Part shown: piece by piece, positions 2,317 through 30,692 of the stretch
How the letters are laid out: each line of letters begins with the position of its first letter
Numbering within the stretch: the first letter of the stretch is position 1
Virus record (IMG/VR): IMGVR_UViG_3300010365_001171
Location: 1 to 64,000 of that record
DNA length: 64,000 bases
Source of the DNA: a virus
Taxonomy: Duplodnaviria > Caudoviricetes
Reading direction: 5' to 3' (one strand)
The notes under the pieces: generated by a model
Told to the model about the DNA's origin: nothing
Databases searched by the model: none
The model's input: only the letters and a program-made list of their open reading frames with translations
Position numbers and translations under genes: made by a program

Positions 2317-2688
2317 ATGAAAAAAACAATTAAAAAACCTTTAAAAAAAGCTATTATAAAGCTAAAAATTTGGGCAAGAAAAGCGCAAAAAGCAAACTAT
2401 ATTGATAGAGGCTTTTCTAGCGTTGAGCAAGAAGACTCTTTTATTAAAAGTGTTGATATGGTAATTAGTAATTGTAAATATGTTAATACAGAACTACAAT
2501 TAAACTATATTAAAAAACAATTTGAAAAAAAAGTAGCCCTTAAAAACTTCAAAAATCCTAGTACGTTTGTAGTAGAGCAAAATTATAGATGTTTAAAAGC
2601 ATTTGAAGAAATTGAGAAAAAACTCTTAATCAAAAAAAGAGAAAAAGTTATTGGAAAAGGTATTACAAAGGGTGTAAATGTTAAGTAG
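2317..2688 (+). CDS. hypothetical basic protein
   Basis: 123-aa ORF. Confidence 0.6.
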   Translation: MKKTIKKPLKKAIIKLKIWARKAQKANYIDRGFSSVEQEDSFIKSVDMVISNCKYVNTELQLNYIKKQFEKKVALKNFKNPSTFVVEQNYRCLKAFEEIEKKLLIKKREKVIGKGITKGVNVK

Positions 2689-2914
2689 CACTAAAGTAGC
2701 TCTACTAATACTATTAGGGGAGCTTTTATACGACTTTGATAACTCCTATGATTATTTTGACAAAATAAAAATAAAAAGTAAAATAGACGCAGTTCATACA
2801 TTATTAGATTTACCTCTTATTAAACAACCTACTTTTTTACAAAAATTAACAAAAAAAAAGATATATAAATTAATAAAGTTAATTAGAGAAAACATTAAAA
2901 CTCTTTGTAAATGA
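2678..2914 (+). CDS. hypothetical protein
   Basis: 78-aa ORF overlapping the previous gene. Confidence 0.55.
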   Translation: MLSSTKVALLILLGELLYDFDNSYDYFDKIKIKSKIDAVHTLLDLPLIKQPTFLQKLTKKKIYKLIKLIRENIKTLCK

Positions 2915-2919
2915 TAAAT

Positions 2920-3670
2920 ACGTACTCGAAATGAGATGGGAAATTTTGTTTACATAAAAATACTAATTTTGGAATTAACCAGATGTTAAATGTCAGGGTA
3001 AAGGCAGCCAAACTCATTACATATCAGTGTTTCTGTTCAATGTGAGAAAGATGAGGTAACGGAGTAATCCTAGTATTTTTTAAAGTGTAAAAACATTGAC
3101 TACACTATAAATAAGAATGTCAGATGTAAGTCTGAATTTGTTGTTCTCTTGAGAAAAGGATACGAGTTATAATATTAGAAACAAGTCAAAGGTAATAGAT
3201 ACTTAAATCCTATAATATTATATACTGGTTTTACACAACAAAAATGAGCAGATAACTGCAAGGATTCTGATTATAAAAAGATTGAAGTGGCTTAATAAAA
3301 CCGAAAGCCTTGAAACTACTTAGCCATAGTAGGGTGTAGGAAGAAATTCCTTTAAAATCATCAAGCAACCGGGCATCTTTTTATAATTTCTCGGCAAGAC
3401 CCTACCTTTACTACCAAACACTTATACAGAAATGTAAGTAGAGTGCAGAAACAATAGAACAGTCTTTAATTAGATGGAAGAACTGGCTAGTAGAAAGGGT
3501 GCTAATAAAAAATTTAAAAACATTAAACCGCTGTAGTAAAGCTTCTATACAATAGATTAAGATAAAGGATAATCTCTATTGTGAAGTATCCTTGCTTGGA
3601 TCTTTTTTTCTTTAAACTATTTATTAGTATAAGGAATAAATTGTCTAAAAGACCCGAAAAACAGCGGTTT
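2920..3670 (+). ncRNA. large structured non-coding RNA candidate (GOLLD/ROOL-like size class, family unverified)
   Basis: ORF-free ~750 nt. Perfect stems 2956-2965/3071-3080, 3137-3144/3235-3242, 3168-3177/3213-3222, 3258-3265/3588-3595, 3329-3335/3399-3405, 3525-3534/3661-3670. GNRA-capped hairpins at 3061-3070, 3120-3135, 3338-3351, 3420-3439. Confidence 0.75.
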
Positions 3671-3684
3671 TTATTAAAACAAAT

Positions 3685-4479
3685 ATGATTATAGAAAAAA
3701 ATTTAGAGGGTAAATCAGGGGTATATTTTATAAAAGCATTTGATCTTTTTTACATTGGATCTTCAAAAAATGTAAGAAAAAGATTAATGAATCATTTTGC
3801 TCAACTAAAACGTCAGGGGCATTATAACAAACACTTACAAAAAGTGTAAGATGAAAATGGAGAGGCCATATTTACATATTCTATAATTATTTTTTGTTCT
3901 ATAGAAGAATTAAAAGAAAAAGAAACCTTTTATATAAATTATTATAACGCTTTTTTAAATGGGTTTAACCAATCAAAAGATTCTAAAAGTCCTCTAGGCT
4001 ATAAGCACACTGAAGAAAATAAAAAAATAATGTCTGATAAAAAAATAGGCATTAAACAAAAAGAAGAGTCAGTACAAAAAAGAGTTTTTAGTTTAAAAGG
4101 TAAGGTAAGAACAGAAGAGCACAAAGAAAATTATAGAAATAGTAAACTAGGAGAAAAAAACCCTATGTTTGGAGTAAAATTGACAAAAGAAGAAAGAATT
4201 AAAAAAGGTAGGGCAATGAATTCTGTAGAAAGGTGGAACACAGGCAAAAATAAAGATAATGATGAAAAACTTTATTTAATGTCTCAAAAATTAAAAGGAA
4301 GACCAGCAGTAAATAAACTTTATCATAAATTAATAAATTTAATTACTGGAGAAGCGTGGGAGGCGGATTCATTATTAAAATTATCAAAATTAACACCAAT
4401 TTCTAGTTCATCTTTAAGTAGGTTAAAAACTGAGACTTGTAGTAATAAAATTAAAAATAATTATAAATTAATATGGTAG
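3685..4479 (+). pseudogene. GIY-YIG homing endonuclease (NUMOD-type tail) with premature TAA
   Basis: ATG 3685 gives SGVYFIK..YIGSSKNVRKRL..H; single in-frame TAA at 3847-3849; frame continues into the tracked ORF 4030-4479. Confidence 0.85.
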
Positions 4480-5132
4480 AATTATTAGAATATTTTGGAA
4501 ATGATTTAATGGCGGCTAACTGTGCTAGAGTAAGTTATGGTAAAAGAAAAGAGGCATTTGATGAAAAAGACGAGAAACTGCTTAATTTTTTAGCCCGAGA
4601 AGATCATATTGCTCCATTTTACCACCCTAAAATACAGTTTAGGCTAAAAATCCCTATATACATTGAACGGCAGCTTACAAAAACTAGTGTAGGAGTTAAT
4701 TTAAATTCTGAATTAGATGTAGATATTAACAGTATTTCAGGGCGCTACGTAGATTTTTCAGATAGTTACGCACCAATTAAAAAATGGAGAAAACAATCTA
4801 AAAGTTCTAAACAAGGGAGTGAAGGATTAGTTGACGACCAGGATTACTGTGCACATATAGAAGCCAAAACTATAGAATTTTGTCAACAATCTTACAGAGA
4901 TTTATTAAGTAAAGGGGCAGCAAAAGAACAAGCAAGAGCTTTATTACCTTTAAATTTAAACACTGAATTTATTTGGACAGGGAGCTTATGGGCGGTTATT
5001 AGACTTTGTCAATTACGCTTAAAGCCAGATGCCCAAGAAGAAACAAGAGAAGTAGTTGAAAAAATGCTTGAAGCTGTAAAAAATATTGAAGGACAACCTT
5101 TCAAATACTCTTTAAAAGCTTTTGGTTTTTAA
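4473..5132 (+). CDS. thyX: flavin-dependent thymidylate synthase
   Basis: ARVSY, H..PF.H, NSISGRY, EQARALLP, RL..AQ.E motifs. Confidence 0.95.
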   Translation: MVELLEYFGNDLMAANCARVSYGKRKEAFDEKDEKLLNFLAREDHIAPFYHPKIQFRLKIPIYIERQLTKTSVGVNLNSELDVDINSISGRYVDFSDSYAPIKKWRKQSKSSKQGSEGLVDDQDYCAHIEAKTIEFCQQSYRDLLSKGAAKEQARALLPLNLNTEFIWTGSLWAVIRLCQLRLKPDAQEETREVVEKMLEAVKNIEGQPFKYSLKAFGF

Positions 5133-5490
5133 ATAATATTATTTTAAACCTAAAAAATTATAAGTAATGAATAAATTTGATAATCTTCCTGTTGAAATAC
5201 AGGAAAAAATGCTTGATAATCAAGTAAGTAGTGGTAGTATTATAAATATTAAAACAAAAGTAAATTCAAAGCTATTTAAATTTAAACTTTGGTACTTAAA
5301 AATGAGAAGACTATGGGGTTATTTATAGTTTCACTTTTCTTTTTATTTATGATATTATTAAGTGAAAATAAACGTAAAAAATATTAAAAGTTATTATTAT
5401 GCAAGATGTAATTGAGGAATTGTTTAAAATAAAAGAGTCTTATGAAGACATAAAAAAACTTCTTGAAGAGCTAAAACTACAAAATACATT

Positions 5491-6021
5491 ATGACTAAGT
5501 ATATAAGTATAGATGTAGAAAGTGATGGTCCCTTATTAGGAACTAATTCTATGGTCTGTTTTGGGGCTGTTTTAGTTGACTTAGAGGGTAAGCTGGAAAC
5601 AGATTTTTATGGGCAAGTTGCCCCTATTACAGGGACATACAATAAAGAAGCATTAAGTATATCAGGATTCACTAGAAAAGAACATGAAAATTTTCCATCC
5701 CCCGCTATTACCATGCAAAAATTTTATGATTGGTTAATAGATGTAAAAGAGGAAGATAAAATTGTATTCATATCAGACAACAATGGCTATGATTTTTCTT
5801 GGATTAATTGGTATTTACTAATGTATTCAAAAGAAAACCCTTTTGGTTGGTCTAGTAGAAGAATAGGAGATATGTTTTGTGGTTATAAACACAATTTAAA
5901 ATATCAGTGGAAAAAACACAGGGATTTAAAAAGATTCCCACATAATCATAACCCACTTTCTGATTGTAAGGCTAATGCTACAGCCTTTTTAAAGTTAAAA
6001 GATTTTGGATTTAAAATTTAA
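5491..6021 (+). CDS. DEDDh 3'-5' exonuclease
   Basis: ISIDVESDG, SDNNGYDF, HNPLSD motifs. Confidence 0.85.
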   Translation: MTKYISIDVESDGPLLGTNSMVCFGAVLVDLEGKLETDFYGQVAPITGTYNKEALSISGFTRKEHENFPSPAITMQKFYDWLIDVKEEDKIVFISDNNGYDFSWINWYLLMYSKENPFGWSSRRIGDMFCGYKHNLKYQWKKHRDLKRFPHNHNPLSDCKANATAFLKLKDFGFKI

Positions 6022-6026
6022 TTAAA

Positions 6027-6221
6027 ATGAGAAATTTAAATAATATATTACTCTTTGTAGTAATAACTCTTCTATTGTCAAGTTGTACTCTAGGAGAATT
6101 GGTAATAATGAATGGAAAAATTATTCTATTTACCATAATTGGTGCTTTCACCCTTAAAATAATTTTAATAGCTTTATATCATTTAAACTTTAAAGGTTGG
6201 AAGTACCCTAAAAAACGATAA
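6027..6221 (+). CDS. small membrane/lipoprotein-like protein
   Basis: Hydrophobic N-terminus with LSSC lipobox-like motif plus a second hydrophobic segment. Confidence 0.5.
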   Translation: MRNLNNILLFVVITLLLSSCTLGELVIMNGKIILFTIIGAFTLKIILIALYHLNFKGWKYPKKR

Positions 6222-6222
6222 G

Positions 6223-8226
6223 ATGAAAGTACTTTTTTATGTAGGGCTCTTTACGGGGGAAAGATTAACCCCCGCTGAAATTTTAGATGTAGCAGGTTTT
6301 TTATATAGATATGAAAAAGTATTTATAGTAAATAGAACGCCTGCTGAAAACATCAAAGAAAAAGATTATTATAAAAATGTAGATACTTCTTATTTACAAA
6401 CATCTAAAAAGTTTAAGCATTTATTTCCTCAGTTAGTTATAAAAACACTTAAAGACAGGGAAACAAATGAAGAATGGACAAGAGCTTTAAAAGATTTAAT
6501 AAATAAGGAGTACTTAAAAGAGCATGAAATTGTGCTACATTTTAGTTCTAATGTAAAGTACAAATTTATAACGAATTAACTGGTATTATTATGAAAAACC
6601 CTGAACAGTATTTTGATTTAATAAAGAAATCTATATTAAATGAGGTACATATTGTTAACATTCGCGGAAACCCTGTAATCTTACCCTCTCCTCAAAGAGT
6701 TGGTACAGACGCACAAAAAGAAGCCTATGCAAATCAAGCATCTAACAATTTAATCTCAAGTCTTCAAAAATTAGAGATTATTTAAATTTAAAATTATGAC
6801 TAAAGAAATTGCAATTAAATTCCAAGATAAAGAGTATCTTTTAAAGATCTCTGCTGAAATTCATATTATTTTTGAGGAGGAGAAACTTTTAATTAAAACA
6901 GATGTTTTTGATGTTTCTCAAGAATTACCTATTAAACGTAATATTCTTAATGTTATAAAAAGAATTAAAAATAAGACCTTTAAAAAAGTTCAAACAATAA
7001 TACATACCGATGTAATTTTTGTTAAAGGACATTTTTACTTTAATGAGGAACTTATAATTAAAGAAGTTTTAGAGACATTAGAAAAAACAATAGCTTTAAC
7101 GCTAATAAATTAAACTAAAAATGATCTTAAAAGGTAGCTTAATATTAAATAATAAGTTGGAAGATTATACCGCATTATTAAATGAAGTTAATTTAAGTTT
7201 TCGGATTTCTATTAACAGCCCATACTTAATGATTCAATTTACCTACGAACTGGATTTTAACAAAGTAAAAAATAAAATAGACAAACAAAATTATATAAGA
7301 ATTTTTAAACAGGAAATTAGAGGTGCAATTAGAGCAAAATATAGCAATACCTAAATTAAATTAAAATGGTAATGAAAATAAAAATGCATTTTTTTAACGA
7401 CCGTTATCGTACAAGGAGTTCAAAAACTACAACAACTTCTGACGTTAATATGTTAAAATCAATTTTAAGGACACTACCTTTTTTAGGGTTATTTAAAGAT
7501 AATTGGAATCTTTTTTACGGCCCGAGAAGCTCACCTTTTTTTAGATATGTACAATTGGATTTAAAAGACATAGAAAATATCACTGTTTTACTGGGAGAGG
7601 GTACAGTAGTACCAACAGAAATTCAAAGAATTGAATTATTTATATTAAAACAAAAAGTAACTTTATTTAAAAAAGCGTAAATGAAAATATTACAAAGCAA
7701 AGATTATCACAGAGAGGTAGTTTTTAATAACCACAACGGAGTTATAGTAACTATCTTAAATGAAAAAACTATTTACTCTTTAGGCAGTATTATTGAATTT
7801 CAAGGAAGACGGTATGAAATACTTGAAATAAGTTATAATGAGGACCATTTTAAGCTTTTTGCGACTTCCCTAGAAGAAGAAGACGAAGAAAATATAGTGA
7901 TACTTGATTTTAGCACTATAAAAGTATTAGAGAATAATTTAATAGACTCAGAAGGTACCAGGTTTAGTCTAGGCAATACTTTATATACTTATATTAACAA
8001 AGAATTAAAAAGTTTTGTATTTTCTATTGAAAATCTAGCAAATTTTAAAGAAGAAAAATACTTTTTAAGCGCAAAAGCAGCTGCGGTTGAAAAATTTATG
8101 CTAGAAGATTGTATAATACCAGAAGATTTTTTATCTTATGCTACTAATGTAGGTACCTTAACAAGCGGGGAGTATCACAAAGTAAAAAGAGTTTTAAAAC
8201 AATTTATAAAACAAATTATAAAATAA
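6223..8226 (+). CDS. run of six hypothetical ORFs (6223-6579, 6591-6785, 6796-7113, 7121-7354, 7366-7680, 7681-8226)
   Basis: Tightly packed co-oriented ORFs with ATG starts; no recognisable motifs. Confidence 0.65.
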
Positions 8227-20882: not shown

Positions 20883-22364
20883 ATGAAAAAAATTGAAATA
20901 GATGGTTGGAAATACAACCTTTCCGATCCTGAAATCGGTTTTGTAAAAAATCAGGGGTACAAAATTATAACAGGAAAGAATTATTATTGTGCATTAGATG
21001 AAAATTTAAGGTTAATATACTTTAAAAATGAAGGGTTTAATTTACAATTTTGTGTTCAATCCGCCTTAATTAATGAAAAGTTACAAACAGCAGAAGGAAG
21101 AGATTTAATAACAATAAATTTTGGAGCTATTGCTTCTAAAAACAATACACTAGCTATAAAAACAAAGTTAAAAAATAAAATTTGTAATGATATCTTTTTT
21201 ATAAATAGTGCTGCTGCTATTAAAAATGGGTTTATAGAATCTTTTTTAGATGGTATTTTTTATGAGAAAAATGAAATTTATGATTTAAGCTCTATTAAAA
21301 AAATTAATAATGTAAAACATTTTAATTTTAAAGATAAATACAATGTATCAGATTATAAAAAAGATTATTTAAAACAAATCGAAGAAGCGAGTAACGATGT
21401 AAAGTTTAAAAATAACTTTGATCTTTTAAAATTTTATCGTAAATATCTCAAAGATTTTTCTTTTGGCGTAGAATTAGAATTTTCAAATGGCTATATTAGA
21501 CCTGAAGATTGTTTTTTAAATAATTTTGTAGGATTACGAGACGGCTCAGTGGCTGAAACAGGATCAGAGTTAGCATCTTTACCGATTTTTGATTACAGAG
21601 GTATTCATAAAGTTAAAAATATGATGGAAATCCTTGAAACTCGTACTAGTGTAGATCATACTTGTTCTACACATATCCATGTAGGCAATTTACGTACAGA
21701 TAACCTATTTATTTCTAATATTTATAAAGTATTACTTAGTTTACAAAATGAGCTTTACCAAGCATTTCCTCAAACACGTAATCAAGAAGTGAACGGAAAA
21801 AGGTATTGTGCACCATTACCAAAACTAGATCTTACTTTAAACAGAGGAAATTTAAAATCTGGGTTGACTAAAAATGTTGAAAAAATATTTGCGAGTTCAA
21901 ATGGTGGAAGAGGCTATGAAAAAGCCCACTCTTCTTTAGAATTAAGACAAGTTGAAAACGGGTTGTTTAAAAAAGTTTTACGAGAAACATATTACTGTAA
22001 AAAATCAAACATTTCTGTTTATGATGGCATTCCTAAGTATAATATTCCAGCAAGGTACTTTATAGTTAATTTTTTTAATTTTCTACTTAAGCCTGTAAAA
22101 ACAATGGAATTTAGAATAATGGAAGGAACTTCTAGTTTTAACGCCTTTATTAATTGGGTATCATTAATTGTTGCAATAATTAAATACGCCGAAAAATTAC
22201 ACCCAATGAAAAACATTGATGGGTTAACTTTAAAAACAGTAATTTCTGATTATTTTGAAACAAAAGAAGCCTCAAAATTAATCACTTATTGGGAGAAAAG
22301 AAAAGAAATTTTTAAAGTAGACATTAAAAACAGTAAATTACTAAACGATTTTAAAATATATTAA
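20883..22364 (+). CDS. putative amidoligase (COOH-NH2 ligase, glutamate-cysteine-ligase fold)
   Basis: FGVELEF, DGSV, ELAS, CSTHIHVG, TMEFR motifs. Confidence 0.85.
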   Translation: MKKIEIDGWKYNLSDPEIGFVKNQGYKIITGKNYYCALDENLRLIYFKNEGFNLQFCVQSALINEKLQTAEGRDLITINFGAIASKNNTLAIKTKLKNKICNDIFFINSAAAIKNGFIESFLDGIFYEKNEIYDLSSIKKINNVKHFNFKDKYNVSDYKKDYLKQIEEASNDVKFKNNFDLLKFYRKYLKDFSFGVELEFSNGYIRPEDCFLNNFVGLRDGSVAETGSELASLPIFDYRGIHKVKNMMEILETRTSVDHTCSTHIHVGNLRTDNLFISNIYKVLLSLQNELYQAFPQTRNQEVNGKRYCAPLPKLDLTLNRGNLKSGLTKNVEKIFASSNGGRGYEKAHSSLELRQVENGLFKKVLRETYYCKKSNISVYDGIPKYNIPARYFIVNFFNFLLKPVKTMEFRIMEGTSSFNAFINWVSLIVAIIKYAEKLHPMKNIDGLTLKTVISDYFETKEASKLITYWEKRKEIFKVDIKNSKLLNDFKIY

Positions 22365-22366
22365 AA

Positions 22367-22640
22367 ATGCAAAAAGAAAAATTATTTAATTTTTTTATAT
22401 CTGCCAATCAAATTGAAGAGTTTGAATGGTTGAATAAAATCGGCGGTAAAAGAGTAAATACGCTTGAAGAGGCACAAGTAATACTTTTTAATGGAGGAAC
22501 AGATATAAACCCTATTATGTACGGGGAAAAACGTGGGAGATATACAAATATTTCTGATTTAAAAAGAGATAAAGAAGAAGTGGAAGATTACTTCAAAGCA
22601 CAAAAACTAGGTTTAATTTGTGTAGGTGTATGCCGTGGGT
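22367..22640 (+). CDS. class I glutamine amidotransferase / peptidase C26, exon 1
   Basis: FNGGTDINP..YGE, RD..E, GVCRG nucleophile elbow; exon ends at U22640. Confidence 0.85.
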
Positions 22641-22749
22641 TAAATGTGGCCCACGTTAAACAGGGTGAATTCAGGGAACGCTGAAACGCCAATCCTGAGC
22701 TAAGCATTAAAAGAAATTTTAATGAAAGTGCAACGACTAGCAGTCGAGA

Positions 22750-23481
22750 CTAAGTTTTCAGTGTTATATCTGGAAATACGTCAGTAATACTGCCAAGAGC
22801 GCCCTGAATTTTATAATGTTCAATTATTTTATTAATATTTTTAGAAAAATTTTGCAGTTGTAAAAAATCTGCTGCATTTTTCATAGAATTTGCTAGACGA
22901 GAAATTATCCATATATTTCCTTTAATATACCCTTTAGAGTTGTCTATCCTGTCTACAGTGGCCCTATTAAATTTATTTGAATTACCTTTTGAAGTGTAAT
23001 CCAATTTGATATTTAATAAAGGGCATACCTCAGGTAATTCAATGTCAGAGTAATGTAAATTAAAATCATCATTTATATTATTTTTATTTCTTTTAGATGA
23101 ATATTTTATATTTCTTATAATATAACCTCTTATTCTATCTAAATCACTTAAATATATATTTTGAAATAATTTATGAGGTAAATTATAAAAATTACGTAAT
23201 TCACATACTCTTTGGGTATTAATTTTTTTTCTTATAAACAAAGGATGTTTTTGTAACTTTAAAATTATATCAGGAATTTTTTGATTATTTAAATATAAAT
23301 CAGTAAAAAAATTTTTAAATTCCTTATGTTCTAAAAGTTTCCTTATAACTAACGCACATGGTAAATTGCTTTGTTCTCTTATTCTTCTTACAAAATCTAT
23401 ATTCTTGTGGAGTTTAAGTGCAATTTCTTTATTAGTTAGTCCTTGTTTAATTAAATTTAAAATTAATAATTTCTCGTTCAT
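22750..23481 (-). CDS. intron-encoded HNH homing endonuclease, antisense to the intron
   Basis: CPLL...TVDRIDNSKGYIKGNIWIISRLANSMKN His-Me finger motif; N-terminal HTH. Confidence 0.88.
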   Translation of the reverse strand: MNEKLLILNLIKQGLTNKEIALKLHKNIDFVRRIREQSNLPCALVIRKLLEHKEFKNFFTDLYLNNQKIPDIILKLQKHPLFIRKKINTQRVCELRNFYNLPHKLFQNIYLSDLDRIRGYIIRNIKYSSKRNKNNINDDFNLHYSDIELPEVCPLLNIKLDYTSKGNSNKFNRATVDRIDNSKGYIKGNIWIISRLANSMKNAADFLQLQNFSKNINKIIEHYKIQGALGSITDVFPDITLKT

Positions 23482-23509
23482 TGTAATATGATTATTATGT
23501 TATATATTA

Positions 23510-23540
23510 CAATATAATAAAAATAATTTGAAATAACAAA
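23510..23540 (-). promoter_or_regulatory. promoter-like TTTG-N20-TATATTG driving the antisense HNH
   Basis: Plus-strand CAATATA 23510-23516 and CAAA 23537-23540. Confidence 0.6.
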
Positions 23541-23621
23541 TATAAAATTATGATATAGTCTGACCTTATACAAAAAAAAGTATAAGAAGTAGAGGATAAA
23601 GAGCCTTTACGATAACATTAG

Positions 23622-24070
23622 CACAACTTCTCACTGTTTTAAACGGTGGAAAATTAATACAACATGTTGAAAAACATAATGCTCCCCATAATTATATAGA
23701 TATTTATGGCACGGATATTCTAATACCATCTTCTCACCATCAAATGATGTTGCCAAAAGAAGATGAAAACTGTATAATAATTGGGATAGCTCCATCTAAT
23801 TTTACAGGCCGTTATTTAAATGGGGATAATAAAGAAATAACATTCACAAAAAATTTTATGGAAATTGAGACTTGTTATTTTAAAAAAACAAATTCTCTCT
23901 GTATTCAAACACATCCTGATTGGTATATTGACATAGGTATTAAAATATTTGGAGGTTATTTACTTAAACTATTAAATAAAGAAGTTATCTCACCTCAGGA
24001 TACTTTACAAAGAAATTACAGAATAACAAGAAGAATTCCTATTGAACGAATACAATTAAAAAAAAACTAA
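23622..24070 (+). CDS. class I glutamine amidotransferase / peptidase C26, exon 2
   Basis: QLLTVLNGGKLIQHV..SSHHQMM..EIE..QTHPD; in frame with the tracked ORF 23744. Confidence 0.85.
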
Positions 24071-24071
24071 A

Positions 24072-24767
24072 ATGAATAAAAAAATAATAGGCATACCGGG
24101 CTGGATCTTAGGAACAAGTGGTTTTGGTGTAAAAACACCATATATAGAGTATGTCTCAAGATTTGGAATACCTTTAATTTTAACACCTCAAATGAATGAG
24201 GTTATGCCAATAGATCTCTTATTTTTACCTGGGGGTGCAGATGTAGATCCACATAGATATGGAGAAACTCCTAGTTATCTTACTGGCAATCCAAATTTAA
24301 TGCTAGAGTTTTTTGACAAAACCATGCTACAAAGATATATTGATGAAGATATTCCAATAATTGCGTGTTGTCGTGGATTACAAACCGTAGTAGCGTTGTA
24401 TGGTGGTAAATTAACACAAGACTTACCTTTTCATTCTCAGTCTGCTCATAATACTCATATAGCACATACTCTTGCATTTACAGAGGGTTATGAGTATTTG
24501 GAAAAACAAAGCCGTCATACAAATTCTAGGCATCATCAATGTGCTGATCCAAATAATTTGCCACAAGAATTAGAAATTATTGCGTTTGCGGAAGAATTAC
24601 AAGGTAAACAAGCTATCACTGACTACAGTGTACCAGAAGTAATAATTCACAGAGAAAAGAATATATTTCTTTATCAAGGACATCTAGAAGACTTACCGGG
24701 AGAAAATTTAGGAGATTTTGTATTTGATTTATACTTGAATGGTGGTAAAATTAAAAAACAACCTTAA
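24072..24767 (+). CDS. second peptidase C26 / gamma-glutamyl hydrolase (PuuD-like)
   Basis: LPGGADVDP, CCRGLQ, NSRHHQ, YQGHLE. Confidence 0.88.
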   Translation: MNKKIIGIPGWILGTSGFGVKTPYIEYVSRFGIPLILTPQMNEVMPIDLLFLPGGADVDPHRYGETPSYLTGNPNLMLEFFDKTMLQRYIDEDIPIIACCRGLQTVVALYGGKLTQDLPFHSQSAHNTHIAHTLAFTEGYEYLEKQSRHTNSRHHQCADPNNLPQELEIIAFAEELQGKQAITDYSVPEVIIHREKNIFLYQGHLEDLPGENLGDFVFDLYLNGGKIKKQP

Positions 24768-25584
24768 TTTAAAGGACTTTAAATTAGGTTTTGACCCAGA
24801 GTTTTTATTATTAGATACAAATCTAAACAGACATGTATCTGGATTAACTTATAACTTTGGGGATAAGAGTAATGGACGAGAAATTTGTCCAGACTGTACG
24901 GTTGAAAATGACATGGTAACACTAGAAATAGTGTTACCACCAGTCAATATCGAAGATGGCTTAGACAAATGTTGGGAAAACTTTTCCACCGTAAAAGATT
25001 TACTACAAAAAGAATTACCTGAAAATATCGTAATTGATTGTTGTAGTTATGCCGAATTTACCAAAGAAGAATTAGCCACGGAGAAAGCAAGTACAGGAGG
25101 ATGTTCGATAGATTTTAATGCATGGAATAATGGAGAACCAAATAAATCTCCAAAGTTTAAAACTCCTTACAGATCATCAGGGGCCCATATACATTTTGGA
25201 ATGCCTACTCTTACCTATAAGCAAATGGTTCAAATAGTAAAGTTAACAGATCTTTTTATTACGTTACCTTTAATTTTTAATCAAAGTAATATAGAGAGAA
25301 GAAAACTTTATGGGGCAGCTGGGGCCTTTAGATGTGTAGAAGGACGAGTTGAAGCAAGATCTCCTTCTAACTGTTACTGGTCTTCAAAAGAGGGGCTAGA
25401 ATGGGTGTTTAATCAAGCTAAAATTATTCTTGGTTTAGTTGACACTGAAATCATGGAAACCGTTGAGTACTACAAAGAAAAAATTATTGAGGCAATAAAC
25501 TTTGATAATTTAGAGTTAGCGACAGAGTTAATGGAAATATTTAATATTAAATACGCCCCATTACCTGTTTTAGAAACAACATAA
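24739..25584 (+). CDS. phiEco32-like COOH-NH2 ligase type 2
   Basis: GFDPEF, D...LEI, GCSIDFNAW, RSSGAHIHFG, RR.LYG.AG.FR, VEAR. Confidence 0.88.
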   Translation: MVVKLKNNLNLKDFKLGFDPEFLLLDTNLNRHVSGLTYNFGDKSNGREICPDCTVENDMVTLEIVLPPVNIEDGLDKCWENFSTVKDLLQKELPENIVIDCCSYAEFTKEELATEKASTGGCSIDFNAWNNGEPNKSPKFKTPYRSSGAHIHFGMPTLTYKQMVQIVKLTDLFITLPLIFNQSNIERRKLYGAAGAFRCVEGRVEARSPSNCYWSSKEGLEWVFNQAKIILGLVDTEIMETVEYYKEKIIEAINFDNLELATELMEIFNIKYAPLPVLETT

Positions 25585-25626
25585 AATAAACAGAGTTTAT
25601 AATTTAATGTAAACTCTGTTTATTTT
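25583..25626 (+). terminator. intrinsic terminator closing the amidoligase operon
   Basis: AAAATAAACAGAGTTTA-loop-TAAACTCTGTTTATTTT followed by T-rich sequence. Confidence 0.8.
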
Positions 25627-25648
25627 CTTTTATTTTTTATAAAAAAAG

Positions 25649-25679
25649 TTTGTTTTTGATCTAATTAATACGTATATTA
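25649..25679 (+). promoter_or_regulatory. promoter-like TTTG-N20-TATATTA
   Basis: Same 20-nt spacing as the other promoters; ends 5 nt before ATG 25684. Confidence 0.55.
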
Positions 25680-25683
25680 TAGT

Positions 25684-26070
25684 ATGGATTTTATCAAAAT
25701 AAATGGCAATGTGCCCTCATCAAAAAATAGCAGAATTTTTAATTATAAATTAAAAAAATCTTTCCATTCTAAAACTACTCAAAAATTTGTAAAAAGTTCT
25801 GAGAGCGAATTCATAGAACAAAAAGAAAAGTTTTTATCCTTAATAAAAAATAAAAGTAAACCTTTTAAAATAGGGCTACATTTTATTAGGGATTCAAAAA
25901 GAAAATGGGACTTTATAAATATGTGTCAAATTATTTTTGACTTAATGGTAAAAAATAATTGGATAGATGATGATAATACCAATGAAATAGTTCCATTTCC
26001 TGTAGAAATTGACAACGAATACTATACAGTAGATAAAAATTTAGCGGGGGTTTTAATAACTATATTATGA
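25684..26070 (+). CDS. RusA-like Holliday junction resolvase
   Basis: GNVPSSKN, D.IN..Q...D......WIDDDN motif. Confidence 0.8.
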   Translation: MDFIKINGNVPSSKNSRIFNYKLKKSFHSKTTQKFVKSSESEFIEQKEKFLSLIKNKSKPFKIGLHFIRDSKRKWDFINMCQIIFDLMVKNNWIDDDNTNEIVPFPVEIDNEYYTVDKNLAGVLITIL

Positions 26071-26798
26071 AAAATTTAGATAGAACTTTATATTACGAAG
26101 TTTCTGGTATTTATAAAATTCAATCCCAGATTGATTCTAGATGTTATATAGGCTCAAGTAAAAATTTATATAAAAGAATAAACTCTCATATTAATGAATT
26201 AATTAATAAAAAACATCCTAATAGTAAATTACAAAATTTTATTAATAAGTATGGTATAGAGTGTTTAAATGTAGAAGTATTAATTTCAAACGTAGAATTA
26301 TCTGATATTTATAAATTAGAAACTATTAAAATAAAAGAATATAAAGCTTTTGAAGAGGGATTTAATTTACAAGAAGAGGCAATACCTATTAAAGGGCGGC
26401 CATTAACAAGCGAACACAAAGAAAAAATAAAAGCTACGCACATTAAAAATAAAGATAAAAATTTACCTATATATTTAAAAAATTTAAATTTAGCTAGAAA
26501 ACAAGTTAAGTTAAATAATGAAATTTTAAAACTAGTAGGTAAAAAAAGACAGGCCCCAAACAAAGGTATAAAGGCTTCAGACGAAACTAGATTTAAACAA
26601 AGAATGGTAAAATTAGGAAAACCGTCTTTAAAAAAAATCAAAGTAAATTGTTTATATAAAGATGGCACTTTTTACAAAACATATGACTCTATACAAGAGG
26701 CTGCAAATGCTTCTGGAGCAAACGTGCCTAATATATGTGCGGTATGTAAAAATAAAAGAAAATCAACAGCTGGCTTTTTATGGGCATACTGTGTATAA
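26067..26798 (+). CDS. free-standing GIY-YIG homing endonuclease with NUMOD-type DNA-binding repeats
   Basis: SGIYKI...YIGSSKNLYKR; C-terminal Y.SI.EAA...I..VC...RKS.AG..W. Confidence 0.9.
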   Translation: MKNLDRTLYYEVSGIYKIQSQIDSRCYIGSSKNLYKRINSHINELINKKHPNSKLQNFINKYGIECLNVEVLISNVELSDIYKLETIKIKEYKAFEEGFNLQEEAIPIKGRPLTSEHKEKIKATHIKNKDKNLPIYLKNLNLARKQVKLNNEILKLVGKKRQAPNKGIKASDETRFKQRMVKLGKPSLKKIKVNCLYKDGTFYKTYDSIQEAANASGANVPNICAVCKNKRKSTAGFLWAYCV

Positions 26799-26900
26799 AA
26801 GATAAAAGTAAAGATCGTGGTTATGGCGTGATATGCGAAGGGAAATAAATGAGATTTTATAGAGAGTATGTAATACACTATAAATAATCTACATTAATTA

Positions 26901-27446
26901 ATGGATTTTTTAAAATTATATAGAACACCAATAAAACAAGTAAAACATTTTATACTGCCGTTATATAATATTCCTTATATTGAGGATAAAAATAAAGGTC
27001 TTGAGGCCTATTTTTACGAAGATTCAGATTCTGAATATAAAGATACAATAGCGTTAGTAATAAAAAAAGACCAAGAAGATTATTATAAAGACTTTATTAA
27101 TAATAACGTTTTAAAAAACTCTTCTTTAGTAAATTATACTTGTAATGAAGGAGTAGACATTTACGTCTTTAGTGATGACTCATTAAAAGAGGACATCGAA
27201 AAAATTAAAGGCGGTAAAATTTCACAATTAAGTGCACAATCTAAAAAGAAAATAAAAGATTGGCATTTTAAAAGACTTAATAAAGATTCGGTTATTTTAA
27301 ACTACTTTTTTAATCCAAAGACAGAGGATTTTAAGCTTTGCGCAAAGCAGCTGGGAGAATCTGAAGAAGATGTATCAAAAAGTGGGGAATTATGTCCTAA
27401 AATAAATTTAGCAAATGAGACTTTTAGAATTCCTAATTTTTTATAA
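26901..27446 (+). CDS. hypothetical protein
   Basis: 181-aa ORF. Confidence 0.7.
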   Translation: MDFLKLYRTPIKQVKHFILPLYNIPYIEDKNKGLEAYFYEDSDSEYKDTIALVIKKDQEDYYKDFINNNVLKNSSLVNYTCNEGVDIYVFSDDSLKEDIEKIKGGKISQLSAQSKKKIKDWHFKRLNKDSVILNYFFNPKTEDFKLCAKQLGESEEDVSKSGELCPKINLANETFRIPNFL

Positions 27447-27770
27447 ATGAAAACACTATTTAAATACGCAACTTACCTAAGAGATGAAAAAGGTGAAGTT
27501 ATTGAAGATTCTTGGGCATTAATTTCTGTAACCCCATCTAATGTATTAGAAGCTTATTTTGATAAGACAGAAAATATTTTAGTTGTTGTTATGGATTCGT
27601 CTAAAGAATATAAACAATTCTTACCTTTAGTAACTAAAGCAGGTTACAAAAGAAACTCTAAAGGAGCGGTAATTGAACAACTTCAAGAAGTTCAAAGATA
27701 CTTTCAAATTGAAATGAGAAAAGAAGACGAGATCGCTTTATTTTTAGATACTTTCTGTATTAATCCATAA
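27447..27770 (+). CDS. hypothetical protein preceding PolA
   Basis: 107-aa ORF, translationally coupled to polA. Confidence 0.7.
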   Translation: MKTLFKYATYLRDEKGEVIEDSWALISVTPSNVLEAYFDKTENILVVVMDSSKEYKQFLPLVTKAGYKRNSKGAVIEQLQEVQRYFQIEMRKEDEIALFLDTFCINP

Positions 27771-29029
27771 TGTTTTTAGATTCTAAAAACTATGAAAGCT
27801 TAAAAAGGGATATGTTTAACGACATATCCCTTTTAACTTTTATACCATTAGATATAGAAACAACAGGTTTAAATTGTTGGTTTCATAAACCTTTGTTACT
27901 GATAATAAAAGGAGATAAACAAACATGGGTTTTAGATCTTAGAACAATTCCTAAAAAACAAATCTCTTCGTTATTAAAATATATTGGTACTGAAAAAACA
28001 ATAGTAGGACATAACTTAAAGTTTGACTGTAAATTTCTAACATATCATTACAATGTAAAATTTAAAAGCGTTTTTTGTACCTATGTAAACAGCAGATTAA
28101 TTTGGAATGGTATAAAAAGTAAAAAATACTCATTAAAATATTTAACTGAATTTTATATAGGAGAAATTTTAGATAAAGAAGTTAGAAACTCTTTTATAAA
28201 CAAACCTGATGACTCTCCATTCACTGAAGAAGAGATAGTTTATGCTGAGGGAGATGTAAAATATTTGCTAGACATAAAACTTAAAATAGAAGAGTGCCTA
28301 GTAAAATATAATATGGAGTTTTTATCTGAATTAGAAAATAAGTTTTTACTTTGTCTTGTACAAATGGAATTAGAAGGTGTAAAAATAGATCATGAAAAAT
28401 GGACTAAAAATATACAGGATTGGGAAGCAGAGCGTTTAAATATGATATCTAATTTAGATAAAGAATTATTTAATTTGTCTAAAAAATTTAAAGCTCTTTC
28501 TTATGCTTCTTTTGACGTAAAGGTAGACGAAGACCGTTTAAAGGTAACACAGAAAAATTTATTTTTTGACGATACAATTATAGACATTGAAAAAAAAGCT
28601 AGAATAAATTGGTCTTCCCCAACTCAAATTAAACAAATAGCTTATTATTGTCAGATTTTTCTAGACAGTACAGGAGAGGATGCCTTATTAGAGTATAATA
28701 AAAAAAACATAGGGAATCCTTTAGAACACCTATTTGAATTATTAGTTGGAGATGGAAATAAAGTAAAAGGTCTTAGACAAATTGAAAAATTACTTTCTAC
28801 TTATGGAGAAACATTTTTTAAAATTGAAAATAGTATTACTGGAAAAATTCACACCAGTTTTAGTCAAGTAAATACTGAAACAGGTAGACTTAGTTCAGGA
28901 GATACTAAATCTGATGGTAAAAAAATGAATTGGGGAGTTAACCTTCAAAATATTCCGGCCGATAATAAAATTAGAAACTGCTTTATCCCTGATGAAGGTT
29001 ATTTATTTTGTAGTTCAGATTTAAGTGGT
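27770..29029 (+). CDS. polA: family A DNA polymerase, exon 1 (3'-5' exonuclease and start of polymerase domain)
   Basis: LDIETTGL, GHNLKFD, YAEGDV, TETGRLSS, NLQNIP, IRNCF, DLSG. Confidence 0.92.
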
Positions 29030-29040
29030 AAAAATAAAAA

Positions 29041-29070
29041 TTGATAGTATCAAAAATATTTCATATATTG
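29041..29070 (+). promoter_or_regulatory. intron-internal promoter-like TTG-N20-TATATTG
   Basis: Same spacing as the other promoters; upstream of ATG 29086. Confidence 0.55.
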
Positions 29071-29085
29071 AAATAAAAGGATACT

Positions 29086-29895
29086 ATGTACGAATTGCAT
29101 CAAGACATTAAAAATTTATACGAATCAGGTTTATATCCTGTTGATATAGCTAAAAAACTAAACAAACATTTAACTTCTGTTAAAAGAATTTTAATTAAAT
29201 ATTATAAAGAATTACGAGTTGAATCTAAAAGTTCAATAAATAATATTTTATTTGAAAATCTGAAAAATAGAGATGTTAATTATTTTTTAGGCTTATTAGC
29301 TACTGATGGTTGTATAGTTAATTCACGTATAACTTTATCTTTACATGAAAAAGATTTAGATATAATTGTTAAGTACAAAGATTTTTTAAAAACAAAAAAT
29401 AAAATAGCTTATCAAAAACATACTAAATTCAATTCAACACAAGTAAGAATAAGTGTTAGAAATAAAACTGTAACACAAAGATTAATTTCTTATGGTATTA
29501 CAAGTAAAAAAAGTGAAACATTATGTTTGAGTATTCCAATAACATGGGATATGTTTAGAGGGTTTGTTGATGGAGATGGATCAATTTCAGGTATTAATAA
29601 AAATAAAGGTTGTAGAATTCAAATAGCTACAATTTCCGAAAAGTTTAAAGATCAAATCCAAGAATTTTTAAAATTAAATAAAATTGATTTTAAAACGTAC
29701 AAATCTAAAAATATTTATCAAATAACTATACATAAAGACTCAGAAGTATTAAAATGTTTTGATAACATGTACAAAGACACTGAAACTTATATAAAAAGAA
29801 AGTTTCATAGCGCCACACTTTATAGAAATATATTGGAAAATAAACCACTTAAATTCAGGGAAAACGTGTCGACAACCCTGAGCGAAATCTATTGA
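29086..29895 (+). CDS. intron-encoded double-motif LAGLIDADG homing endonuclease
   Basis: YFLGLLATDGC and FRGFVDGDGS. Confidence 0.9.
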   Translation: MYELHQDIKNLYESGLYPVDIAKKLNKHLTSVKRILIKYYKELRVESKSSINNILFENLKNRDVNYFLGLLATDGCIVNSRITLSLHEKDLDIIVKYKDFLKTKNKIAYQKHTKFNSTQVRISVRNKTVTQRLISYGITSKKSETLCLSIPITWDMFRGFVDGDGSISGINKNKGCRIQIATISEKFKDQIQEFLKLNKIDFKTYKSKNIYQITIHKDSEVLKCFDNMYKDTETYIKRKFHSATLYRNILENKPLKFRENVSTTLSEIY

Positions 29896-30002
29896 CCTTT
29901 AAGGTAAATTAAACAAATAGAGACGTGCAGAGACTATAATAGTGGGGACTTAACCATTTTATGGAAAGTTCAAGGGATAGTCCAAATAGAATAAAACTAT
30001 AG

Positions 30003-30692
30003 GCAGAGATACGTGTAGCAGCTTCTGATTCACAAGAATCAGTATTAATTAAAGGATTTTCAGAAGGATTAGATTTCCATAGTGTATTAGCACAGGTATC
30101 TTTTAGAATTATTTTAAACGACCCCGATTTAATTGTTACCAGCGAAATAAATAAACAATATAGAACAGCCCATAAAGCTGTCTTATTTGGTTATATTTAC
30201 GGCGGCGGACCACAAAGAATTAGCCAAATTTTAAATATTCCGATAGAAACAGCAAAGCTAGTATATATGCAACTTAAAAAAACATTACCAACTTTAGACC
30301 GTTATTTAACTGATAGTGCAAAATTTGCAACAAAAAATTATTACATAAATGGGTCAAAAAGAACAAATAGAAGAAGATGGTTTTCTGACTTTTTTGAAGG
30401 TAAGATGGAGGCGCATGAGGTAGAAAGACAAGCTAAAAATATGCCTGTGCAAGCAACCAATGCAGATATGATTAAAGAAGCAATTATAGAAGTTATAGAA
30501 TATTTTGAATCAATAGGAAATATTGCTAAACTTTTATTCACTGTACATGATGAATTAGATTTTGTTATACCAATAGGAAGGCAAGACATTGCAGAAAATG
30601 TAAAAAATATTATGGAGAACGTAGGAAATAAATATTTAACAAATGTAAAAATGGTTTCAGATTTAACAATAGACACATGCTGGAAGAAATAA
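30003..30692 (+). CDS. polA: family A DNA polymerase, exon 2
   Basis: AEIRVAA, RTAHKAVLFGYIYG (motif B), PVQATNAD, TVHDEL (motif C); spliced protein 649 aa. Confidence 0.92.
   Translation, partial: AEIRVAASDSQESVLIKGFSEGLDFHSVLAQVSFRIILNDPDLIVTSEINKQYRTAHKAVLFGYIYGGGPQRISQILNIPIETAKLVYMQLKKTLPTLDRYLTDSAKFATKNYYINGSKRTNRRRWFSDFFEGKMEAHEVERQAKNMPVQATNADMIKEAIIEVIEYFESIGNIAKLLFTVHDELDFVIPIGRQDIAENVKNIMENVGNKYLTNVKMVSDLTIDTCWKK

Follow-up and report, generated by a model that had tools for sequence, protein, structure and literature searches.

A covarying, phage-borne RNA family with a homologue in phage phi14:2 and a very probable, expanded member upstream of thyX

CrAss-like phages belong to the most abundant viruses known. 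To our knowledge, no conserved non-coding RNA has so far been defined for this group. Two gene junctions of the crAss-like phage phi14:2, g004-g005 and g005-g006, are transcribed rightward (Drobysheva et al., bioRxiv 10.1101/2020.03.07.982082), and the junction RNAs outnumber most mRNAs, are already there at the first time point and persist (bioRxiv 10.1101/2020.03.07.982082). The g004-g005 RNA accumulates above its neighbouring genes without a late drop (bioRxiv 10.1101/2020.03.07.982082). Drobysheva et al. give the transcription of the junctions only, neither family nor structure (bioRxiv 10.1101/2020.03.07.982082). With g004 placed by RefSeq at 2194-2904 and g006 at 4602-4901, the junctions extend over 2905-3589 and approximately 3911-4601. 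The second 'lncRNA' junction is by its sequence a phage tmRNA: positions 4031-4502 on the + strand of phi14:2 (locus L173, KC821624) match a full-length tmRNA (RF00023, 46 bits, E 9e-16), for which ARAGORN predicts the tag GSSVQKLAMVA*, while the GenBank/RefSeq features show no tmRNA, only tiny ORFs that have since been removed.

The first junction is homologous to a region of the window, by which the whole stretch of 64,000 nt of phage DNA analysed here is meant. The RNA at this region shares with the phi14:2 junction RNA six collinear blocks, the same helices, a location on the strand of the flanking genes and a crAss-like phage as carrier. It differs by an extra 5' module and by the site of a 138-nt insertion; phi14:2, on the other hand, possesses helix H7 and the tmRNA 665 nt downstream, of which the window has neither. 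Among other phage RNAs, GOLLD and ROOL are equally phage-borne, large and structured and often lie beside tRNA genes, whereas the RNA family described below has other conserved sequences, no Rfam match at E<=10 and a much smaller core of about 250 nt. Phage tmRNA is a stable RNA gene of the same phages and often the immediate neighbour (phi14:2, L196, L181); the window RNA differs from it in having neither a tRNA-like domain nor a tag reading frame. Group I introns, two of which this phage carries in the window, resemble the locus in being structured RNAs with a homing endonuclease gene alongside.

From an ORF-free gap to a phage RNA family

An earlier note, made from the sequence of the window alone, had drawn attention to an ORF-free stretch, and the stretch is real: positions 2915-3684 contain no ORF, every one of the six frames has 14-22 stops, and each of the three stop codons occurs in every frame. 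Alternative genetic codes were rejected for the gap, because with all three stop codons frequent in every frame the reassignment of a stop codon cannot open it. Said to be the only long stretch of this type, it is indeed the sole one apart from the intron regions, which also give long gaps (three gaps of at least 300 nt within the 64 kb). Six-frame translations of the region with X at stops matched nothing in Pfam or PHROGs, and tblastx against 172 loci found nothing. A decayed protein gene was therefore rejected, as was an origin from a DGR or repeat, the genome having no second copy and no meaningful direct repeats.

The folding statistics of the region are largely ordinary. The long-range perfect helices quoted in the note are exact, and helices of 7-10 bp are more numerous than in dinucleotide shuffles; their number is ordinary compared with other 751-nt windows of this AT-rich genome and does not count as evidence (44 against a mean of 45.9 for k=7, 18 against 14.1 for k=8 and 4 against 1.5 for k=10, with 8% of the 751-nt windows reaching 4). 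The claim of at least four GNRA-capped hairpins agrees with four hairpins of GNRA type at 3126, 3343, 3429 and 3581; this count, reached by 0.4% of same-size windows of the genome, is the sole structural statistic of the region that is unusual against such windows. The MFE of the whole region has a z of -1.5 (+ strand) and -2.0 (- strand), and local 120-nt z values are unremarkable with the exception of 3560-3679 (z = -3.6). Folding on the + strand is not better than that of dinucleotide-shuffled controls, and this comparison, put forward earlier as a refutation test, would wrongly have rejected a real RNA.

When the region was compared by sensitive BLAST with the first 9 kb of phi14:2, the two best matches were collinear and lay within 2905-3589. 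In the alignment, the window and phi14:2 have blocks in common, and one hairpin differs by two compensatory pairs. Unannotated gaps of 143 nt in the unrelated Cellulophaga phages phi4:1 and phi17:2 match part of the phi14:2 junction as well. IMG/VR was scanned with the pattern GACCCTAC N{58,88} AGGGYGCTAATAA, which specifies 8 + 12 bases and one Y; each of the 10 loci retrieved displays extended identity outside the pattern (TGACCCTACTCTTAT ... ATAAGAAAGAGGGTGCTAATAAA). A 20-mer from block F was found in 18 viral loci (13 with the RNA) and among 185,579 species genomes in two MAG contigs only, both times within coding sequence; the non-members (five viral loci and two genome matches) are duplicates or chance matches in coding sequence. 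Rejected as chance matches inside coding sequence were L191, L193, L194, L197 and L198, five of 20 from the viral and genome scans. Besides the window, 14 or more phage contigs or genomes have the family, crAss-like phi14:2 among them.

A profile HMM (nhmmer) built from 13 other members, with the window left out, has its sole match in the 64 kb at 2890-3512 on the + strand (E 8.2e-15, profile positions 13-332 of 334). A covariance model (CM R1), with a 40-pair structure written from three compact members, retrieves every member at 54-279 bits and copies consisting of the 3' domain only at 30-40 bits; the phi14:2 member, at 2909-3367 of KC821624, scores 67 bits and lies inside the g004-g005 junction. 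The window's copy is matched by CM R1 in three pieces, 2882-2994 (E 2e-7), 3082-3303 (7e-7) and 3314-3513 (2.5e-5), the scores of which are modest (22-31 bits). No match at E<=1 occurred in 1.19 Mb of other phage loci used as controls, and none of 151 Bacteroidota genomes was matched. We conclude with high confidence that 2882-3513 on the + strand is an RNA gene of a conserved, structured, phage-borne family and homologous to the phi14:2 region. Most of the stretch originally proposed, 2920-3670, belongs to this element, which begins about 38 nt before that stretch and stops about 157 nt short of its end.

Other searches were negative within their scope. BLAST of the region found no match among 50,697 phage records, nor did BLAST with a compact member find one, the conserved blocks being too short for this method. 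A 19-mer taken from the window-specific insertion (GGGTGTAGGAAGAAATTCC) found nothing, the upstream orphan ORFs (2317-2688 and 2678-2914) have no family and no relatives in viral contigs, and the loci of thyX relatives (80 viral and 80 metagenome) are without the RNA. We found no paper that defines the family, which could be contained in a catalogue of more than 10,000 viral RNA candidates (PMC10690425).

The comparison with known RNA families, recommended in the earlier note for GOLLD, ROOL, group I and II introns and RNase P, gave no match in Rfam 15, neither at gathering thresholds in the window nor at E<=10 in 2400-5400. The GOLLD and ROOL models in particular have no match at gathering score in the window and none at E<=10 in 2400-5400, and the phi14:2 and phi4:1 loci were negative at E<=5 against Rfam including GOLLD and ROOL. 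By these searches, the family is absent from Rfam 15. Homology to GOLLD or ROOL, one of the two options raised at first sight, is unsupported, although the genomic context is alike; the other option, a new class in crAss-like phages, was essentially right, the conserved, covarying RNA being present in crAss-like phages (phi14:2 and four contigs with the crAss-type virion RNA polymerase) and in other phages as well.

RNase P RNA was rejected, as the region has no Rfam match; the conserved blocks lack GAGGAAAGUCC and the ACAGAA..GGCUUA motifs, which we take to be the RNase P consensus. A tmRNA was equally rejected, since ARAGORN matches nothing anywhere on the contig, the window included, and RF00023 is without a match, while the same method detects the tmRNA of phi14:2; the claim that tRNA cloverleafs are lacking agrees with ARAGORN, which reports no tRNA or tmRNA. 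For group I introns the Rfam negative alone is weak, since Rfam 15 at E<=10 over 22000-30500 misses both reported group I introns of the window, probably because large endonuclease insertions defeat the Rfam group I model. R/S elements were consequently read by eye, and 22641-23621 displays by this means a canonical group I R/S core. A group I intron was rejected for the region, where no gene is interrupted (thyX is complete) and no R/S (P7) elements of the GACUA...UAGUC type occur, as had been claimed for P7.

Architecture, covariation and the expanded copy in the window

The family consists of six collinear blocks, A-F, with variable segments in between. Compact members measure 250-290 nt (L189, for example, is a 258-nt compact version), while others reach 450-870 nt via insertions. 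In compact members H1 with its invariant 12-nt loop is followed by H2, H3, H4 enclosing H5 and H6, the optional H7, P1/P2 and the tail GCUAAUAAA; the loop of H3 is invariant in the compact form, (A/U)GUAA(U/G). In alignment A9, 95.2% of the cells are standard pairs, compared with 85.0% in shuffled alignments (none of 500 shuffles reaches the value) and 39-56% with partners slid, a percentage inflated by the fitting of A9 to the model, with which slid controls and hand inspection nevertheless agree. Pairs with changes on both sides number 17 against 8.2 expected, and the cells concerned 51 against 10.8. The + strand is fixed by G-U pairs.

Compensatory changes support each of H1, H2, H3 and H4, so that homologues with compensatory changes, which had been asked for as a check, are at hand for four helices across the phage family. 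The stem of H1 varies as AGGU/ACCU, ACGU/ACGU, CAGG/CCUG and GUGG/CCAC; four of the six pairs of H2 show double changes in the family alignment; H3 occurs as CUAUC/GGUAG, UACAC/GUGUA, CUAAU/AUUGG, ACAGA/UCUGU and UCAGA/UCUGA; and H4, GUGUUGU/ACAACAC in other members, has a G-C replaced by U-A in the window. H5 is listed as invariant in the CM alignment, where it was drawn as CCUU-GAGA-AAGG; this version was dropped on inspection for a 4-bp stem with a 9-nt loop, C-UUGAGAA-A, and the corrected stem covaries (UUCC/GGAA, UCAC/GUGG, GUCC/GGAC, CAGG/CCUG, UUACC/GGUAA). The optional H7 covaries as well (GUAGUUA/UAACUAC versus AAUGAUG/CAUCAUU), and the support for H8 is lowered by misaligned members that carry H7. 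P1 and P2 are invariant, and covariation therefore provides no proof for either.

The loop of H5, UUGAGAA, could pair with UUCUCAG, UUCUCGG or UUCUCAA of block D to form a candidate pseudoknot, a not proven interaction that fits through A/G changes opposite U only, with no double compensation seen. Together with the invariant single-stranded segments and a conservation as strict as in catalytic cores, this candidate pairing of a loop with a strand might speak for a ribozyme that cleaves itself or catalyses another reaction and has the pseudoknotted H4/H5/block D region for its core. No ribozyme family of Rfam 15 is matched, however, flanking exons are lacking and the canonical group I R/S elements present at 22641-23621 do not occur in the RNA, and we regard catalysis as quite improbable.

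The features of the window's copy are compiled in Table 1.

Table 1. Coordinates of the RNA, its parts and its flanks in the window, and putative ends of the phi14:2 RNA
Feature	Position	Strand	Description
Family RNA	2882..3513	+	about 630 nt vs about 250-nt core; nhmmer and CM R1
H1 hairpin	2885..2904	+	AGAG/CUCU, 12-nt loop AAAACAUUAAAA (family consensus UAAACAUUGAAU); CM alignment
H2	2906..2954	+	UGUAAA 2906-2911 with UUUACA 2949-2954, enclosing a variable hairpin
H3a, phi14:2-type	2963..3073	+	CUA 2963-65 and GG 3061-62 with CCUAG 3069-73, loop AGUAAU
Second 5' module, without H2	3085..3135	+	CM match 3082-3303 aligns model positions 1-25 and H3
H1'	3085-3105	+	GUGUA/UACAC, loop AAAACAUUGAC
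H3b	3120-3135	+	UCAGA/UCUGA, loop UGUAAG
H4	3137..3242	+	UUUGUUGU 3137-44 with ACAACAAA 3235-42; encloses H5 and variable H6
H5	stem 3144-47/3157-60	+	loop C-UUGAGAA-A
Block D	3245..3394	+	AAAUGAG 3242-3248, UUCUCGGC 3388-3395; split by 138-nt insertion
Candidate pseudoknot	3149-55 with 3388-94	+	H5 loop UUGAGAA with UUCUCGG
H8, alternative to pseudoknot	3245-48 with 3390-93	+	UGAG with CUCG
3' domain	3397..3512	+	P1 ACCCU 3399-3403/AGGGU 3496-3500; P2 UUUACUA 3407-13/UAGUAGA 3488-94
Spacer, unconserved	3514..3684	+	matched by neither profile nor CM; nothing similar in any locus
GIY-YIG + NUMOD3 homing endonuclease, free-standing	3685..4479	+	Pfam, PHROGs
thyX (flavin-dependent thymidylate synthase), complete	4473..5132	+	PF02511, 1e-33, profile 1-187 of 191
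phi14:2 RNA, putative ends		+	start near AGGUUAAAC, end GCUAAUAAA

Blocks A-F, which in the family end in AGGGUGCUAAUAAA, are all present in the window and in order. Blocks E and F are slightly divergent, with CCUUUAC for UCUUAU and two bases deleted from F, and in the pairs AGAG/CUCU, UCAGA/UCUGA and UUGUUGU/ACAACAA both sides have changed relative to the consensus. The 5' part of the element overlaps the last 30 nt of ORF 2678-2914, which closes with a double stop and the stop codon of which falls inside H2; block A and H1 start at 2885. H3a holds a 95-nt inserted domain with the hairpin UUGG-AAUUAA-CCAG (2969-2982), for which phi14:2, L190 and L196 have CCUG-AAUUGA-CAGG, which amounts to two compensatory pairs. 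H3b has a near-identical counterpart in L185 (ACAGA-UGUAAG-UCUGU), and an extra 5' module is also found in L195 and in the record of L188. The insertion in block D, positions 3249-3386, is specific for the window, forms a 13-bp stem (3270-82/3375-87) with three hairpins and dominates the MFE centroid; in L179, block D also carries an insertion at this site. The 3' domain carries a variable cap with a GAAA hairpin and the invariant tail, and ends at 3512.

The window copy is an expanded version of the family RNA, in which an extra 5' module (H1-H2-H3a) is followed by a complete RNA lacking H2 and extended by the 138-nt insertion. With its large putative expansions, a match to the CM in three pieces and a decayed endonuclease beside it, it could be a degenerating copy. 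The motif of the H1 loop, AAAACAUU(A/G)A, appears three times in the window (2889-2900, 3090-3100 and 3517-3526); the third copy opens the unconserved spacer past the 3' end of the RNA and may be a remnant of another 5' module.

The 3' domain is also found on its own, with blocks E-F in L174 and L175 at 1466-1608 (phi4:1 and phi17:2) and blocks D-F in L178/L184. Phages phi4:1 and phi17:2 belong to the non-Crassvirales genus Lightbulbvirus, in which the domain fills the 143-nt intergenic gap. It may be a separable functional module.

Neighbours in the window and in other phages

Downstream of the RNA, the spacer contains a hairpin at 3549-56/3575-82, a 10-bp stem at 3525-34/3661-70 followed by UUUUUAUU and the MFE z of -3.6 at 3560-3679; this stem region outside the conserved RNA is possibly a terminator or leader. 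The long hairpin announced at 3543-3586 exists exactly, as the stem 3549-3556/3575-3582, in the unconserved spacer, which moreover holds one arm of each 'crossing' helix. The crossing helices 3258-3265/3588-3595 and 3525-3534/3661-3670 exist as well; they are not evidence for a pseudoknot or switch, since in each helix one arm or both fall within 3514-3684 or the insertion specific for the window, parts that are conserved in no relative. The structural arguments of the earlier note from long-range perfect helices and from the crossing pair are at chance level or lie outside the conserved RNA.

The endonuclease that follows is probably decaying, to judge from an in-frame TAA at 3847-3849. In at least 17 other phage loci, none with a long non-coding stretch, a homologue with 37-56% identity stands immediately before thyX (L014, L015, L018, L019, L023, L026, L030, L043, L049, L103, L118, L133, L144, L151, L156, L163 and L167). 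Because of this pairing with thyX in the absence of the RNA, the endonuclease is considered a thyX-associated free-standing element and was rejected as carrier of the RNA. The closest thyX relatives (70% identity) have neither endonuclease nor gap. In L004, the closest thyX relative in IMG/VR, a 663-nt ORF-poor and G+C-richer stretch lies at 5447-6109, approximately 1.9 kb upstream of thyX; it matches nothing in Rfam and shows no similarity with the window RNA.

The damaged endonuclease, the absence of endonuclease and gap from the closest thyX relatives and the lack of conservation of 3514-3684 and of the 138-nt insertion would suit non-functional DNA, either a decayed gene or a recombination scar of the neighbouring homing endonuclease. 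Against this stand profile and CM homology and covariation across 2882-3513 and the lack of a protein-family remnant in any frame, so that for the region as a whole this explanation is hardly credible; it is refuted for 2882-3513 and possible for 3514-3684 only.

Each genome has one locus for the RNA. The crAss-type virion RNA polymerase is encoded in the records of L184, L185, L190 and L196, in phi14:2 and in the window phage, and the polymerase query found no match in complete records of 65.9 kb and 266 kb, because of which the RNA may also occur outside crAss-like phages. The members so far belong to phages linked to Bacteroidota hosts such as Cellulophaga. Comparison of the member loci revealed no protein gene as conserved neighbour; no neighbours recur other than tRNA and tmRNA genes, which are nearby in seven of about 15 loci. 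The distance from the RNA to a downstream tmRNA is 53 nt in L196 and 665 nt in phi14:2. In L186 the RNA is followed after 100 nt by tRNA-Met, in L179, L192 and L195 by tRNA arrays; the contig of the window phage (70% complete) contains no tRNA or tmRNA gene. The tmRNAs of L181 and L196 are located at 7885-8204 and 6572-6907, respectively.

In L179, L181, L183, L185 and L187 an ORF opens 15-35 nt past the tail. Some of these ORFs, like the more distant g005 of phi14:2 (3590-3910), encode short hydrophobic, membrane-like peptides without detectable mutual homology.

An ATG 15-35 nt past the invariant tail in at least five loci, with several of the ORFs starting hydrophobic, would fit a cis-acting element, either a leader that controls the translation or the stability of a gene for a small membrane protein or a processing element for the transcript of a tRNA/tmRNA island. 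The lone 3' domain, which in phi4:1 and phi17:2 takes up the whole of the 143-nt gap in front of a gene, would fit it too. We consider such a role unlikely: the item downstream varies between unrelated ORFs, tmRNA, tRNA-Met and, in the window, spacer and endonuclease, no downstream protein family is conserved, and the phi14:2 junction RNA exceeds its neighbouring genes without a late drop.

The shared context with GOLLD and ROOL, phage-borne and beside tRNA/tmRNA genes, the very high abundance of the phi14:2 homologue throughout infection and the strong conservation of unpaired nucleotides can also be seen in the light of a self-assembling architectural RNA, the invariant loops of which would make intermolecular contacts in a multimeric cage or scaffold during infection. 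By cryo-EM, GOLLD and ROOL form RNA-only multimers (bioRxiv 10.1101/2024.12.08.627333), which counts for this explanation. The family, however, has no sequence or structure match to GOLLD or ROOL, its core of only about 250 nt is far below their size and its invariant loops are without palindromic kissing-loop sequences, and an architectural role is equally improbable.

A possible role for the RNA and its implications

Taken as a whole, the best explanation, in which we have good confidence, is a family RNA gene at 2882-3513, which may give rise to a trans-acting recognition RNA. The RNA would be independently expressed, stable and trans-acting. Its invariant loops and junctions might serve as recognition surfaces for a conserved cellular partner, a proposal made because they are nearly invariant between phages with proteins less than 30% identical. 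The partner might most likely belong to the machinery of translation or of tRNA maintenance and surveillance, as proposed because of the tRNA/tmRNA neighbourhood, with the RNA acting as cofactor or decoy. This mechanism, a trans-acting recognition RNA with a partner linked to translation or tRNA, rests on association with these neighbours and is a tentative one, at less than even confidence.

What had been an orphan 'intergenic gap' becomes a member of a covarying RNA family. Equally, the phi14:2 'lncRNA' becomes a defined gene with a secondary-structure model, a 250-nt minimal form, expansion variants and a culturable genetic system; as the junction RNA reaches a very high level in phi14:2 on Cellulophaga baltica, its function is directly testable. 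Among the phage RNAs that travel with tRNA/tmRNA genes, the family is a third and unrelated one besides GOLLD and ROOL, and comparison of the three could show their purpose. Perhaps, at rather less than even confidence, this would be a class of phage structured RNA not recognised before and, for crAss-like phages, their first conserved non-coding RNA family, common to unrelated Bacteroidota phages; by its invariant loops the RNA might engage a host translation or tRNA-surveillance factor, as decoy or cofactor, to secure infection.
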